Assembly (NCBI RefSeq): GCF_000582535.1
Contig: NZ_CP006932.1
Span: 420,001-452,000 of the forward strand
DNA length: 32,000 nt
Reading direction: 5' to 3'
DNA from: Candidatus Saccharimonadota bacterium
GTDB lineage: Bacteria; Bacillota_I; Bacilli_A; Mycoplasmatales; Hepatoplasmataceae
The notes below the pieces were generated by a model, which had not been told where the DNA came from, did not search any database, and saw only the letters and a program-made list of their open reading frames with translations. Positions 828 through 7,411 of the stretch are shown here, in pieces. Each line of letters starts with the position of its first letter. The stretch's first letter is position 1. A program made the translations under genes and the position numbers.

Positions 828-1487
828 TTAATTTAATGTTTCTTTTAATTCTAAATTAGTATTTAAATCAATATTTTTTATTTTAAATTGACTATTATAA
901 TGTCCGGGATAAATAACATAATTATTTTTTTTACATAAATCATAAAGAAATCTTATTGATTCAAAAAATCTATCAAGATCAGTACCAATTTCTTTTCTAT
1001 GCATTCCAATACTTTTTAAAAAGATTGTATCACCAATAAAAATATCTTTTTTATTAAAAAGATAAAATGTAGATCCTTTTGTATGTCCTCCAAAAGGAAT
1101 TATTTTAATATCAATTCCTAATAGTTTTAATTCTTGTTCTTCATTTCCCAAAAAAGTAATAATATTTTTTTGTTTTTTGTCTAATTGTCAATTTAAATTA
1201 GATAATGCTGATCTATTTATATTTGCATCAAAAAGACCTTCTTGGTCTTTTTGATTAATATAAATTACTGGATTAAATTTTTCAATAATTTTTTCTAATC
1301 CCATAAGATGATCTAAATGATTATGAGTTAATAATACATATTTTATTTTAATATTATTATTTATACAATAATTAATTATTTTATCTTCTGATGTAGCGGT
1401 ATCAATCAAGATTGCTTCTTTATTATCTTTGATATATAGATATGAGTTTGTAAAATTAAAGTTTTTGTTTTGAAATTTTTTGATCAT
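828..1487 (-). CDS. Metallo-beta-lactamase-fold hydrolase (219 aa)
   Basis: Track ORFs 1188-1487 and 828-1151 share one frame and are joined by TGA(Trp) at 1188-1190. LLTHNHLDHLMG is the HxHxDH zinc motif, followed by GGHTKGS and PGH. Confidence 0.8.
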
Positions 1488-2366: not shown

Positions 2367-2936
2367 TTACATGCAAACTTTATAAATATATTTATATATT
2401 TTATTATATTTTTCATCTTGAATACTTATTAATGAAAAAGCTTCTGTAAATAAAGCAATATTTAATAATAAAAGAATAAAAAGAATTTCTTTTTTTTCAG
2501 TAATTTTTTTTTGAATTATTTTATGTTTTAACGCATAATCATTAAATTTTAAATTTTTACTAACATAAAAATCATCGATTATTCTCTCGTGATTTTTAAA
2601 TTGTTCAAAAATTAATTTATGATCGAATTTTAATCTTTTAATTTTTTTTACAGAATCTATATATCTTCTTTTTGTAATTGGTGATTTAAAATATGTAATT
2701 AATTTTAAATCTGCTTTTGAATTTATTAATTTTTCTTTATCTAAAATTCCATCAATAAATAAATAAAAATTTTTTAAAATATTTTCCGCAGTTGTTTTTC
2801 TTAAATTAATATTTAAATCTTTTCGATATTTAAAATCTCAGATTGTATAAAAAATACCAATAAAAGCCATTATTGTAGTAAGAATACTAAGTGTTACCAA
2901 AAAAGTTCCACTAATTCAAGCAGCAAAACTATCCAT
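2367..2936 (-). CDS. Membrane protein, tandem paralog A (189 aa; N- and C-terminal TM segments)
   Basis: Not in the ORF track (TGA at 2916 and 2838, and no alternative start after them). I checked codon by codon: ATG 2934-2936 to TAA 2367-2369. Begins MDSFAAWISGTFLVTLSILTTIMAFIGIFYTIW and ends KYIYKVCM. Confidence 0.7.
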
Positions 2937-2950
2937 AAATTTCCCTTAAA

Positions 2951-3520
2951 TTACATACAGATTTTATAAATATATTTATATAATTTATCATATTTTGCAT
3001 TTTTTATTTTAACAATTGGTAAAGTTTCTGTAAATATAGCAACATTCAATAATAAAAGAACAAAAATTATCTCTCTTTTATTTGTAATTTTTTCTTCAAT
3101 AATATTATTTCTTAAAGCATAATCATTGAATTTTAAATTTTTTCTAATATAAAAATCATCTTCTACTTTTTTATAATCTTTAAATTGATTAAAAATTAAT
3201 TTCTGATCAAAATTTAATTTTTTTATTTTTTTAATTGAATCTCGATATTTTCTTCTTGTAATTGGAATTTTAAAATTAGTAAGTAACTTAAAATAAGCAT
3301 CAGATTTAATCATTTCTTGATCATTATCCAAATTCTTCATAAATAAAGAAAAATTTTCAATTATTTCCTCATGTGTTTTTTTTCTTAAATCTATATTGGT
3401 ATCTTTTTTATATTTAAATCCTCAAATTGAAAAAAAAACTCCAACAAAAATCATGATCGAAGATAAAGTACTATAAAATACAAGAAAAACCCCGCCAATC
3501 CAAGCTAAAGCACTATCCAT
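2951..3520 (-). CDS. Membrane protein, tandem paralog B (189 aa)
   Basis: Track ORF 2951-3340 extends upstream through TGA codons to ATG 3518-3520. Begins MDSALAWIGGVFLVFYSTLSSIMIFVGVFFSIW and ends KYIYKICM. Same length as paralog A and collinear with it. Confidence 0.7.
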
Positions 3521-3756: not shown

Positions 3757-4497
3757 ATGGTTTGATGAGGGATTGCCCTATCTGAATTTTTTGGAACTTT
3801 TTTTCTTATTCTTTTAGGATTAGGGATTAATGCCGATTCAACTTTAAAAGGGACTTACATCAAAAATAATAATTGATTATTAGGAAGTTTTGGTTGAGCT
3901 TTTGCATATTTTATCGGTGGATCTATCGCCTATTATTCTGGAGGAAATATAAATCCAATAATTTCACTTTCAGTTTGACTTACTGATCAAATAACATTTG
4001 TTCAGTTTCTTGATTATATTTTCTTTCAAATTTTAGGAGCTTTTTTTGCAATTGTCATTATAAATTTTCTTTATTTAGATCAACTTAAAAAAACAGATGA
4101 TCAAGAAAGAATTGCAAATGTTTTTTATACTATACCAGCAATAAAAGATTATAAATTTAATTTTTTAACAGAAATAATTGCTAGTTTTGTTTTAGTTACT
4201 GCTTTTTTAAGTTCTGTTTGATATGGATTTAATTTTTTTGAACCATTATTCATGGCTCTTGTTGTATTTGCAATTGCTCTATCTCTAGGAGGTCTTACTG
4301 GATATGCAATAAATCCAACAAGAGATCTTATTCCAAGAATTTACCATAGTTTATTTAAAATTCCAAATAAAGGAAAAACTAACTGAAGTTATAGTTGAGT
4401 TCCTACAATTGGACCAATTATAGGTTCATTATTATCTACAGGACTTATTTGAATAATAATAGAAATTATCGGAGAAGGAAACCCATTTAATAATTAA
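3757..4497 (+). CDS. glpF: MIP-family aquaglyceroporin / glycerol uptake facilitator (246 aa)
   Basis: Runs from ATG 3757 to TAA 4495-4497 with many TGA(Trp) codons, so it is absent from the track. Reads MVWWGIALSEFFGTFFLILLGLG...GGNINPIISLS...LTGYAINPTRDLIPR. The protein has six hydrophobic segments and two NPx boxes. Confidence 0.85.
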
Positions 4498-4545
4498 AAA
4501 ATAAAAAAATCAGTCTATATTATTTTAAAATATGTGATAATAATT

Positions 4546-4608
4546 TTGAAGCACATTTAGTTGTGTGGAAAAAACAAAGAATTTTATTGAAGCACATTTA
4601 GTTGTGTG
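4546..4608 (+). repeat. Two perfect 22-bp direct repeats, TTGAAGCACATTTAGTTGTGTG, 41 bp apart
   Basis: Copies lie at 4546-4567 and 4587-4608, immediately 3' of glpF. Each contains a short CACA...TGTG dyad. Confidence 0.9.
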
Positions 4609-5695
4609 AATTTAAAAAATAACTTTTGTTTTCAAATGAAGCAATCATATTATTTGGTTGCTTCATTTTTTTATTTTTATTTTTGGATATTTTAAAATTA
4701 AAAAAATCCTTATAATGGTTTCTTAAAATTTTATTATGAGAAATTAAATTATTTTTTAAAAAAGCTATTTTCATTTTATAAAATACTTCAATTGTATAAT
4801 CATTTTTTAAAAGATCATATTGTCCATAAAAATAATTTAATAGATCTTCAACACAATTTTTATCAATTAATAAATCATTTAAATGAGAAATTTTATTTCT
4901 ATATTGATTAGTTATTTGTAGTCTTGATATAAAATATTCTCATATTTTATTATTTATTTCTTTATCTGAACATAAAGGATATCTTTTTTTAAAAAAAATC
5001 ATTCTTTCATCAACTTTTAATTTATTTATAAAATTCCTTTTTATTAATTCATCTATATTTAAATAATTATTATTTCATAAATATTTTAATATTAATATTT
5101 TTTCGGCAAAATATAATTTATTAATAATTTTTGAATTTTTTAAAAAAATATTTTTTTCTTCTTTAATATCAATATTTTTTTCTTGAATAGATAATATTTT
5201 ATTTTTTAATGAATTTTTAAATTTCATTTCAAAAATATTTAAATATTTGATAATTAATTTACTGTTAATTAAATAATTTATATTTTTTTCAAAGGAAAAA
5301 ATATAAGTATAAATTATAGCTAAAATTTTATCATTTAAAACATCCAAAGAATCAATTAATTTTTTAATTTCTACTTCAAAATTTTTTATTTTTTTTGATT
5401 TATTTTTTTCTAGAATATCATTTATATAATTAGGAAAATTTTTATAAATTCCTACAATTTTTATTGGAGATATATAACCAGATTTAACAATTAGCAAAAA
5501 ATAATAAATTTGAAAAAATTCTAATTTTTTCTTAAAATTATCTATTTTAATATTTTTATAATTTTTATTTAAAATACTATAATTTAGATTATATTTTTCT
5601 GAATATAAAATGTTAATTATTTCTGAATTTGATTTATTAAAAAAATTTTGATATTCTTTATTAAAATTAAATTTATTTTTTTCTTTTTTATTCAT
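4598..5695 (-). CDS. Hypothetical 365-aa protein, AbiD/AbiF (Abi_2)-like with an RxxxxH HEPN-type motif
   Basis: Track ORF 5075-5695 continues through TGA 5075-5077 and 4940-4942 to TAA 4598-4600 (checked codon by codon). It contains KIWEYFISRLQITNQYRNKISHLNDLL, with RNKISH at 4883-4900. Size and motif position resemble lactococcal AbiD/F-type proteins. Confidence 0.4.
4637..4672 (+). terminator. Rho-independent terminator downstream of glpF
   Basis: An 8-bp perfect stem TGAAGCAA (4637-4644) / TTGCTTCA (4658-4665) with a 13-nt loop, followed by T7 (4666-4672). Confidence 0.7.
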
Positions 5696-5750: not shown

Positions 5751-6052
5751 TAGTTATTGCTTTTTTAAATTCTATTTGATATTAATTTGATTTTTTTACA
5801 TAATTATTTATGATTTTTTTATTTTTCATTGCTTTATCATTAGGAAGATTTATTGAATATGAAATAAATTCAACAAGAGATCTTATTCCAAGAATTTATA
5901 ATAGTTTATTTAAAATTCCAAATAAAGGAAAAACTAACTGAAGTTATAGTTTTGTTCCTACAATTGGTCCAATTATAGGTTCTTTATTATCTACAGGACT
6001 TATTTGAATAATAATATAAATTATTAGGAAAGGAAATCCATTTAATAATTAA
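5751..6052 (+). pseudogene. Decayed duplicate of the glpF 3' end
   Basis: 5751-6052 is collinear with 4192-4497. From ~5870 onward it is nearly identical (CAACAAGAGATCTTATTCCAAGAATTTA...GGAAAAACTAACTGAAGTTATAGTT) and it becomes progressively degenerate toward the 5' side. NPT is changed to NST, and GAA->TAA creates a premature stop at ~6017. Confidence 0.85.
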
Positions 6053-6116
6053 TATTAAAAAGAATATTTTAAAATTTTTAATATTAATTCAAAATATGAG
6101 AATTTATAATTAATTT

Positions 6117-6125
6117 TGATATACT
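6117..6125 (+). promoter_or_regulatory. Candidate extended -10 promoter (TGaTATACT)
   Basis: TGATATACT lies at 6117-6125. No convincing -35 is present. The AT-rich background makes chance matches likely. Confidence 0.3.
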
Positions 6126-6228
6126 AAATTTAGTTAATTGTTAATTAACTCTACCGATGAAAGATTAGTCTATAATTGTTTAATCTGAAATTGGATAGGA
6201 GCCCTATTGAGGGCTTTATTTGTTTTTT
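6126..6228 (+). ncRNA. Candidate ~100-nt structured RNA or leader with two degenerate ~37-nt repeat units, ending in a terminator
   Basis: Collinear motifs occur twice: TTAGT (6130, 6165), TAATTGTT (6135, 6173), and GATGAAA (6156) / GATAGGA (6194). There is a hairpin AGATTA (6162-6167) / TAATCT (6181-6186). I found no ORF longer than 15 codons. Confidence 0.3.
6198..6228 (+). terminator. Rho-independent terminator upstream of the toxin-like ORF
   Basis: A GC-rich stem AGCCCT (6200-6205) / AGGGCT (6210-6215) with loop ATTG, followed by TTATTTGTTTTTT. Confidence 0.7.
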
Positions 6229-6284
6229 ATCAAATTAAATGGAGTTTTGGGGAAATAATATTATTAATATGGGTGAAAATAAAT

Positions 6285-6677
6285 ATGTATCACATAAAAA
6301 TCTGAAAATTTGATCAATTTATTGATTTAAAAGATCTTGATTATCAGAAAAAAAATCAAAATAAAGGAGATTATAGACCTTGTGTCGTTTTAACTAAAAG
6401 AGAAAATCAATTAGTATTAATACCTTTTTCTACATCTAAAACAAATCCTAAATGAAATATTGAATATAATTCTGCTACTAGAAATAAACCTTCAAATATT
6501 CAAATAGATAGATTTAGAATTTTAGATCCAAAGTCTATAGTTATCGAATCAAAAAACTGTACTCCAGTAGATAATGTAAAATTTAAAAATCAAAATGCAA
6601 AAATATCTTCTAAAAAAATTAAAAAAGAAATAATAAATAAATATAACGAAAGATTAAATTATTTAAATTTAAAATAA
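6285..6677 (+). CDS. Kid/MazF/PemK- or ToxN-like endoribonuclease toxin (130 aa)
   Basis: ATG 6285 follows GGTGA (6272-6276), and the ORF ends at TAA 6675-6677 with two TGA(Trp) codons. Reads MYHIKIWKFDQFIDLKDLDYQKKNQNKGDYRPCVVLTKRENQLVLIPFSTSKTNPKWN...IQIDRFRILDPKSIV. This fits the beta-strand / RP-VVL / PxTSxK / DQxRxxD pattern of these toxin folds. Confidence 0.55.
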
Positions 6678-6679
6678 AA

Positions 6680-6703
6680 AGCACACCCTCTAAGTGATGT
6701 GCT
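6680..6703. terminator. Bidirectional hairpin terminator between convergent units
   Basis: AGCACA (6680-6685) / TGTGCT (6698-6703) with a 12-nt loop. An A-run lies on the left (a T-run for the minus strand) and GTCGTATTTT lies on the right. Confidence 0.5.
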
Positions 6704-6800
6704 GTCGTATTTTCTAAGCTCAATCTCAGAGAGATCTAGATACGATTGCTAAATTAACGAGCTCATATAAAATTATGATGAACACGGGAATATTTTTTCC
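6704..6800. other. Locally GC-enriched, dyad-rich non-coding segment (possible small RNA, strand unclear)
   Basis: It contains nested complementarity: AGCTC (6717-6721) / GAGCT (6761-6765), CAATC (6721-6725) / GATTG (6744-6748) and ATCTC-AGA-GAGAT (6723-6735). It is noticeably richer in G+C than the flanks and has no ORF. Confidence 0.25.
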
Positions 6801-6834: not shown

Positions 6835-7411
6835 TTATTTTTTCCTAAATAAAGTAACAAGATATATTTTATCATCATTCAAACTATATGAAAATATAAA
6901 ATTATATTGAATATTTTTTGAAAATTGATTAATTCTAAATATATCTTTAAGAATTATTCTTTTTTGCTTATTTAGTTTCTTAATATAATTTTCTATCTGA
7001 AAATTATTATTTCTATTCAATAAAATTTTTTGAATTTTTTTGTATATTAAATAATACTAATTTCTCATTATAATCTTTATTTAATTTATCCATTTTATAT
7101 TTTCTATAAAAAGATTTATTTAATATTGTCATATGACAATAAATAAATTTCAAATCTTTTATTTTTAATTTTTCATCAATTAAAGAAATTGCTTTATAAT
7201 TAAGATCTCAAATTATTTATTGTATATAATTAATTTATATGTTAGCATTAATAATTTGTTTTCTAGTTTTAATAAATAAAAAAATTCAAGGATGAAAACA
7301 AGCAATAATAATTTCTTTATCTTTTGTTATTTGTAAAATTCTTTTTACTCTTGTTTTTATTTTTCCTCTTTTATTATTTGTAATACTATTTTTTGGTAAA
7401 ACAATTTTTAA
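6835..7411 (-). pseudogene. Block of short, mutually frameshifted ORF fragments; the last (6835-7020) is RelE/ParE-like
   Basis: Three fragments are each closed by TAA or TAG and lack a credible ATG start: 7235-7411, 7013-7216 and 6835-7020(+). The last ends ...NIQYNFIFSYSLNDDKIYLVTLFRKK, reminiscent of the RelE/ParE C-terminus (YRIIYxIxxxxIxIlxIxHR). Confidence 0.3.
7124..7141. promoter_or_regulatory. 18-bp perfect palindrome TATTGTCATATGACAATA (operator-like)
   Basis: The sequence is perfectly self-complementary. It lies ~30 nt upstream of a minus-strand ATG (7091-7093) inside the decayed ORF block. Confidence 0.3.

Follow-up and report, generated by a model that had tools for sequence, protein, structure and literature searches.

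A conserved structured RNA ahead of a predicted MazF-fold toxin gene suggests a new variety of RNA-controlled toxin in Hepatoplasma

Hepatoplasma is an isopod symbiont, and the DNA considered here is a 32,000-nucleotide stretch of Candidatus Hepatoplasma crinochetorum Av (hereafter the window; G+C content 22%, TGA read as tryptophan). Three of the ribosomal proteins it encodes are identical to those of this strain. Between a promoter and a small toxin gene in the window lies a structured, non-coding RNA of about 100 nt that closes with an intrinsic terminator. This RNA is under purifying selection and covaries among related loci, the toxin is predicted to have a MazF/Kid fold, and the locus has no recognisable gene for a protein antitoxin. 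The arrangement suggests, although it does not prove, an RNA-controlled toxin of a new variety, in a module spanning about 0.55 kb (RNA plus toxin). We tentatively favour a reading in which this is a module resembling type III toxin-antitoxin (TA) systems, where the small RNA, made in excess by means of the terminator, would neutralise the MazF-like RNase.

Open reading frames (ORFs) of the window were computed with translation table 4 (TGA = Trp), and a close, intact orthologue of the toxin, P0001, served as the query for an exhaustive protein search. In total, 11 toxin loci were recovered. L001, L002 and L003 are near-identical H. crinochetorum strains, and L100 is a more distant, syntenic relative. 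Eight leaders are of the type found in the window, which we call type A (window, L002, L100, L005, L007, L008, L101 and L004), the seven besides the window's being independent or semi-independent. A second subfamily comprises the Hepatoplasma vulgare-like loci L006, L009 and L102, L009 being Ca. Hepatoplasma vulgare AP027131.1. Several loci lie on short, low-coverage contigs, and the 3' end of L007 is possibly chimeric.

The conserved three-helix RNA and its terminator

The features of the module in the window, with the RNA helices designated P1, P2 and P3, are the following.

6096-6125, plus strand: small-RNA promoter, with a weak -35 element ATGAGA, 18 nt, and an extended -10 element TGaTATACT (6117-6125)
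6126-6228, plus strand: structured non-coding RNA of ~100 nt, with three helices, ending in the terminator
6132-6139/6143-6150, plus strand: P1 hairpin
6151-6158/6190-6198, plus strand: P2, with a bulged A at 6195
Inside P2, plus strand: GAAAG at 6159-6163, unpaired; an inner hairpin at 6162-6168/6180-6186, variable; GAAA at 6187-6190, invariant
6199-6205/6210-6216, plus strand: P3, the terminator hairpin, followed by a U-run to 6228
6229-6268, plus strand: non-conserved spacer from the terminator to the authentic start, 58% identical to L100, which is the background level
6269-6364, plus strand: authentic 5' part of the toxin gene (MGENKYVSHKNLKIWSIYWFKRSWLSEKK...), frame 2, with a TAA stop at 6362-6364 after a frameshift
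6345-6677, plus strand: rest of the toxin gene, frame 3, with the KG-YRP-VV and P-(L/F)-S-S motifs
6680-6703, no strand assigned: hairpin 3' of the toxin stop, called by a terminator scan as an intrinsic terminator on the minus strand

The RNA (6126-6232) folds with a minimum free energy of -26.1 kcal/mol (z = -3.35). An RNAalifold consensus of eight homologues contains 21 pairs, 11 of which show compensatory double changes, and 94.5% of the cells are paired against 82.1% in column shuffles, none of 500 reaching the observed value. When the 3' partners were slid by 1-3 columns, 29-57% were paired and only 0-2 pairs showed double changes. Helix P1 has the sequence AGUUAG..CUAACU, and CUAGU..ACUAG in L101; P2 has 8-9 bp across the leaders, with a bulged A or a small loop; P3 abuts P2, is GC-rich (GGCCC/GGGCC and variants, then UUAU) and is followed by a U-run in 6/8 type-A leaders. 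GAAA is the sole invariant unpaired motif of these leaders, which are least conserved in their inner region. The window and L002 differ by a single substitution (A to G at 6153), by which an A-U pair becomes G-U.

Over 6117-6228 the window is 91% identical to L100; the figure is 75% for the coding sequence (CDS), 57% for the region upstream of the promoter, 58% for the spacer and 49-58% for the flanks overall. A similar comparison of leader with CDS gave 90% against 77% for L002/L100, 84% against 56% for L005/L007 and 69% against 55% for L005/L008. The leader is conserved as well as the CDS, or better, and we conclude that the RNA is under purifying selection and covaries. The original prediction, which was made from the window's letters, had staked itself on conservation of the upstream RNA in homologous loci, where the RNA proves both conserved and covarying; the order of promoter, structured RNA, terminator and toxin that it described is likewise real and recurs in relatives.

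A covariance model scored 76-108 bits on all ten leaders, eight of which were its own training sequences, and found no copy away from the toxin gene in ~187 kb that included the rest of the window. Rfam 15 gave no credible match to the window or three other loci, at the gathering threshold or at E values up to 10. Whatever its function, the ~100-nt RNA appears to be a new covariation-supported motif without an Rfam family. A first DNA-pattern scan produced chance matches only, 77 in GTDB genomes and 12 in IMG/VR. One pattern match, in Spiroplasma sp. OZ245361.1 (L086 7400-7700), falls in a spacer of a CRISPR-like array (repeat GTCTTATTTAGTTGTTGTTTTTGGTTAGAATAAGTT) and was regarded as chance, as was a match inside a coding region of Clostridia. 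A stricter pattern gave one chance match in JGI metagenomes and none in IMG/VR.

The -10 box of the extended element proposed originally is kept at a similar distance upstream of P1 in eight leaders, although its promoter-scan match (9/12, with TG; -10 hexamer TATACT) is not by itself above chance, the scan finding 21 sites with 23.9 expected. A TATAAT or TATACT box lies 5-9 nt 5' of helix P1 in 8/8 type-A leaders, and by eye the extended TGn is present in 5/7 distinct leader lineages. No promoter-like site starting between the terminator and ATG 6269 was found in the promoter scan, so that the toxin seems to depend on read-through.

The terminator, predicted at 6198-6228, was recovered by scanning at 6198-6217 plus a T-run, with 3 terminator-like sites in 2 kb against 0.1 from shuffles. 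It is conserved in eight loci with compensatory changes, the U-run being weak in L004 and L101. When nascent transcripts of seven leaders were folded with their ends ahead of the terminator 3' arm, no antiterminator formed, P1 and P2 were unchanged and the terminator 5' arm stayed free. The intrinsic terminator is apparently constitutive and, since it is strong and conserved and no antiterminator pairing was found, the RNA looks like a discrete product. In type III operons the terminator sets a high ratio of RNA to toxin, and toxin is made by read-through (PMC5086642). The hairpin at 6680-6703, which is retained in L100 with compensating changes, plausibly also ends the toxin transcript; a plus-strand T-run lies 5 nt beyond it.

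The three most divergent toxins (those of L006, L009 and L102) have a different upstream region, without a terminator. A TGTTATATAT box is conserved in their leaders, which also have a 5' hairpin (UGUGUAGA..UCUACACA) and carry UUAGAAAGA in one to three copies, a motif that resembles the invariant (U)AGAAA(C) of type-A leaders, for example GUUAGAAAC in L004. L009 has a 67-nt tandem duplication at 2910-3043 that takes in TTAGAAAGACATAATA as well as the beginning of the toxin ORF, present in L102 as a single copy.

These observations bear on the main rival explanation, which we consider somewhat less probable than an RNA antitoxin, namely that the RNA does not neutralise the protein and instead acts in cis, as a leader or attenuator, on an orphan gene for a MazF-type toxin or an effector of abortive infection, the terminator keeping the toxin almost off until some factor, such as a protein or a phage product, raised read-through. 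Such a leader would fit the adjacency of RNA and ORF on the same strand with no promoter detected between them, the conserved terminator, the single-copy, unrepeated RNA, and the second subfamily, which has only a leader like a 5' untranslated region (UTR) and no terminator. It sits poorly with the lack of a conserved antiterminator or alternative fold in seven leaders, with the conservation of P1, P2 and GAAA far past the needs of a bare terminator, and with L101 and L004, which keep the helices though they have no U-run; any leak of a MazF RNase without an inhibitor would, in addition, be harmful.

The RNA had also been described as repeat-containing, and here the sequence elements were correctly located (TGATATACT at 6117-6125, TTAGT at 6130 and 6165, TAATTGTT at 6135 and 6173, GATGAAA at 6156, GATAGGA at 6194, and hairpin arms at 6162-6167/6181-6186), while the interpretation gave way to that of a single-copy, three-helix structure. 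Local self-alignment of the window RNA (TTAGT..TAATTG.TTAAT) gave p of about 0.016-0.02 against dinucleotide shuffles. When leaders were split at the two GAAA motifs and unit 1 was compared with unit 2, the window gave p = 0.016 and six homologues gave p of 0.18-0.99; a repeat finder run on the window did not report the ~37-nt units. Tandem repeats were consequently rejected as a family feature, since the similarity is absent in the six homologous leaders, and its restriction to the window makes the repeats a resemblance that arose by chance or is peculiar to one lineage. Type III antitoxins are defined by tandem repeats (PMC5086642), and a 2025 survey found that repeats of E. coli TenpI can be non-identical with a conserved adenosine stretch kept (PMC12283969). 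Degenerate arrays exist, yet even a degenerate periodicity is not supported in the Hepatoplasma leaders.

The toxin family and the frameshifted copy in strain Av

A HMMER search of 1.84 billion cluster representatives with P0001 returned seven credible clusters, to which a profile search added three; one of the ten family clusters is from Ca. Hepatoplasma vulgare. All members are about 120-140 aa long and have in-frame TGA codons, which the organisms carrying them read as Trp. The alignment shows the residues W15, I17, Y18, F20, R22, E27, K33, G34, R37, V41, P53, S55, R72, D87 and P88 to be invariant. Of these, R37 (in YRP-VV) and S55 (in P-L-S-S), invariant in the 10 members, presumably stand at the positions of the catalytic R25 and T48 of Bacillus subtilis MazF, a placement made by inspection of the motifs. 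Locus searches with two peptide patterns in GTDB, JGI metagenomes and IMG/VR found none; one of the patterns contains Trp, and was presumably back-translated as TGG and thus unable to match TGA Trp codons.

Sequence profiles recognise the family faintly. The Pfam PemK_toxin profile (PF02452) scores 25.0 bits on the window ORF, a marginal match at a cut-off of 23.1, and 21.8 on P0001, with 2/7 members matching. Pfam ToxN and PADLOC gave no match to the window ORF or family members. The only NCBIfam matches were faint ones to type III toxins, TenpIN (best E 0.0035, 2/10 members) and CptIN (E 0.11), both scoring about 12-14 bits where the cut-offs are 90. Neither the family profile nor a single member matched a MazF or ToxN chain among PDB sequences.

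AlphaFold2 models were obtained for P0001 (pLDDT confidence score 84.7) and for a distant member, P0013 (pLDDT 82.6). Foldseek matched them to Staphylococcus aureus MazF with E values of 2.4e-5 and 1.5e-4, respectively, and to the MazF proteins of B. cereus, E. coli, M. tuberculosis and D. radiodurans and to Kid (1m1f). Template modelling (TM) scores to the S. aureus, E. coli and M. tuberculosis MazF proteins and Kid were 0.56-0.69. For P0013, the entries up to E of about 0.2 were MazF, Kid and CcdB, with noise beyond; ToxN, AbiQ and CptN were absent from the Foldseek PDB top 50 for the two models. The Kid/MazF fold of the original prediction is therefore borne out by these models, whereas its suggestion that the protein fits the ToxN/AbiQ pattern equally well is not, no type III toxin occurring in the top 50; its proposed profile search gave the marginal PemK_toxin match and nothing for ToxN. 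On the strength of the Foldseek matches to MazF and Kid, the models place the toxin in the MazF/Kid SH3-like barrel fold, as a very divergent MazF-fold protein and not a member of the ToxN family.

The marginal similarity to PemK (2/7 members, at most 25 bits) and the lack of a profile match to a PDB MazF would also suit a different explanation, in which the upstream element has a role other than neutralising the protein, either as a small RNA in its own right or, through P1, as a DNA operator; the MazF-fold protein would then be non-toxic, a domesticated RNase or RNA-binding protein with no need of an antitoxin. P1 is indeed an almost invariant palindrome (AGTTAG..CTAACT) just 3' of the -10 box, which would suit an operator equally well. 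We nevertheless regard this explanation as improbable: P2 and P3 show covariation between arms that lie 35-40 nt from each other, indicating constraint at the level of RNA, the RNA was never found without the toxin gene in the scans made, and the putative catalytic Arg and Ser are invariant.

The toxin copy in the window requires a further comment. Aligned by tblastn under genetic code 4, the family protein falls into two segments, residues 1-31 in frame 2 (6269-6361) and residues 27-136 in frame 3 (6345-6674), the latter segment being 94.5% identical to P0001, and this split indicates that the Av copy is frameshifted. The window reads TCAAAA where L001, L002 and L003 have TTCAAAAA, a 2-nt deletion that is absent from four related strains, L100 also having an intact reading frame at the site. 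Translation from ATG 6269 gives the invariant N-terminal block LKIW.IYWF.R.WL.E, and W15, I17, Y18, F20, R22 and E27 all lie within the frame that starts there, which is not that of the 130-aa ORF (6285-6677). That ORF, the toxin of the original prediction, is open as claimed, though only when TGA is read as Trp; what the prediction missed is that its first ~27 residues are out of the family frame, and that the gene is frameshifted. The ORF is thus a chimera whose first ~27 residues are fortuitous.

The toxin in strain Av is thus frameshifted and probably inactive while the RNA gene is intact, the Av RNA being the same as in the strains with an intact gene save for the one substitution relative to L002. 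The locus is eroding in strain Av. Loss of the toxin before the antitoxin fits toxin-antitoxin logic and is also compatible with neutral decay. The 657-kb genome of this Mollicute was assembled from Illumina reads, which makes a sequencing error less likely as the cause of the frameshift (PMC3942034).

Genomic surroundings and the search for a protein antitoxin

An all-against-all BLASTP comparison of ORFs of at least 25 codons within 2 kb of the toxin gene in the 11 loci found only the toxin and its antisense frame to be shared, and no MazE, PemI or Kis-like gene was present up- or downstream in these loci. This upholds the original prediction that no protein antitoxin flanks the toxin, none being conserved in 11 loci. 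The RNA accompanies the toxin into unrelated genomic contexts, without any other conserved neighbour:

H. crinochetorum strains and L100: glpF and the ribosomal protein operon
L005: P-type ATPase and acidic proteins
L008: pgk
L004: surface-like protein
L006: GmrSD, DpnII and PnuC
L009: SNF2/DEAD helicase and PnuC
L102: uvrC

The loci lie in variable or defence-rich surroundings, as with GmrSD and DpnII in L006.

The shared antisense frame raises the question of a hidden protein antitoxin, encoded either there or in a small leader ORF, an explanation to which we attach very little probability. In the window this frame runs from 6374 to 6658 on the minus strand (95 codons), and it is open for 43-120 codons in 11/11 genes, with translations that match each other in BLASTP. 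It also carries 1-4 stops at varying places in these 11 genes, has no conserved start, and in L100, L006 and L009 is split into short stretches. Its richness in F and L is the expected complement of a gene rich in K and E, and long antisense ORFs are common in the window; we judged it to be a shadow of the sense frame. Leader ORFs were rejected as antitoxin genes since they are not conserved.

Several other features were observed near the module. Fragments of 61, 46 and 30 codons at window 6835-7305 (minus strand) derive from genes of 150 aa and 73 aa that are intact in L001-L003, the 73-aa gene also occurring in L100, so that a second gene pair adjoining the toxin has decayed in Av. Window 6678-6800 is a GC-richer (about 40% by eye) non-coding element 3' of the toxin stop that starts with the hairpin 6680-6703. 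L100 has a counterpart with 80% identity (nhmmer E 3.6e-14), the other loci lack it, and Rfam gives no match; the element, being conserved only in the window lineage and L100, was rejected as a core part of the module, and it could be a 3' UTR or small RNA of the convergent 73-aa gene.

On the other side of the module, a 252-nt direct repeat, 87% identical, at window 4259-4510 and 5814-6065 represents a duplicated glpF 3' end, and flanks a 365-aa ORF (4598-5695, minus strand) with no Pfam, PADLOC or NCBIfam match. This block is present in L001 and absent in L002, and is a strain-variable insertion adjoining the toxin module. Window 4539-4620 contains two tandem 41-nt units, each with a GCACA..TGTGT hairpin (AATAATTTTGAAGCACATTTAGTTGTGTGG...), and the same motif is found twice in L100, at about 1340-1420, between glpF and the toxin leader. 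A gene for a metallo-beta-lactamase-fold protein matching Pfam Anti-Pycsar_Apyc1 lies at window 828-1487 (minus strand), L006 5729-6358 and L009 5788-6420. In these three different genomes, all Hepatoplasma-like, no more than a few kb separate this Apyc1-like gene from the toxin gene, which may be mere synteny.

A possible mechanism and comparison with known systems

If the small RNA does neutralise the toxin, the promoter would drive a ~100-nt RNA, most transcripts would stop at the terminator to give a large RNA excess, and occasional read-through would yield a little toxin mRNA. The RNA would bind the toxin dimer and block its RNase site, probably via the conserved unpaired GAAA(G/C) that flanks the variable hairpin, and might do so as a pseudo-substrate or as a processed substrate. 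Once transcription stopped, for example when a phage attacked or the locus was lost, the RNA would decay and the stable toxin could cleave cellular RNA. By analogy, GAAA may be the recognition site of the MazF-like RNase, although this is inference only. Cleavage by the known type III toxins occurs within A-rich sites (AA/AU, A/AAAA and A/AAA; PMC5086642).

Several considerations weigh against this mechanism. The RNA has no tandem repeat array, which is the defining trait of the described type III antitoxins, and two of its three helices, the 5' hairpin P1 and the terminator P3, are generic. Covariation support comes from 5-6 independent lineages, a small phylogenetic depth. L004 and L101 have no U-run after P3, and the leader of the second subfamily has no terminator, so that a design of RNA and terminator is not universal in the family. 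Orphan MazF genes exist, and binding of the RNA to the toxin, inhibition by it and toxicity are all inferred.

A more specific form of the RNA-antitoxin reading is possible, and we hold it a shade more tentatively still: the protein may be a genuine MazF-family endoribonuclease that is checked by a single-copy, three-helix small RNA and not by MazE, in which case the RNA would represent a fourth, non-repetitive class of RNA antitoxin. With the same reserve, the module could bridge the toxins of type II and the antitoxins of type III, and it would be confined to Mollicutes that have minimal genomes and live in association with arthropods.

MazF is the textbook example of a toxin under type II control, exerted by one protein on another; to our knowledge, all described type III systems combine ToxN, CptN or TenpN toxins with tandem-repeat RNAs. 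Were RNA control of the Hepatoplasma toxin true, the RNA-antitoxin solution would have arisen or survived on the MazF side of the fold, and searches based on repeats would miss some type III loci. The module would also offer a very small (about 0.55 kb) RNA-protein unit for structural and engineering work, and would be the first reported toxin-antitoxin or abortive-infection candidate in Hepatoplasmataceae. The genome papers on this family that were searched mention restriction-modification and CRISPR as the sole defences, without toxin-antitoxin systems, and one of them states that the family apparently encodes no toxins (PMC3942034, PMC10928387).

Among known systems, the module shares with type III TA loci (toxIN, cptIN, tenpIN and AbiQ/antiQ) the succession of promoter, non-coding RNA, Rho-independent terminator and a toxin with an endoribonuclease fold, without a protein antitoxin. 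Further likenesses are a toxin in the Kid/MazF-like superfold, an A-rich conserved unpaired motif, and faint matches to the TenpN and CptN hidden Markov models. It differs from them in having one ~100-nt three-helix RNA where they have 2-5.5 tandem repeats of 34-40 nt, and a toxin that is by predicted structure MazF/Kid proper, scoring about 13 bits against an NCBIfam cut-off of 90.

The resemblance to type II MazEF, PemIK and Kid-Kis lies in the predicted fold, in the size of the protein, and in YRP-VV and P-L-S-S standing where MazF has its catalytic Arg and Thr. In contrast to type II systems, a structured RNA and terminator occupy the place of the antitoxin gene, and PemK_toxin recognition is only marginal. 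Attenuator and riboswitch leaders likewise have a structured leader with an intrinsic terminator directly 5' of the regulated ORF; unlike them, the Hepatoplasma RNA has no competing antiterminator and no Rfam match, and occurs only with the Hepatoplasma toxin family. The module is thus type III-like by its layout and departs from type III in its repeats, its toxin family and its closest structure, and by predicted fold it is a MazF system without MazE.

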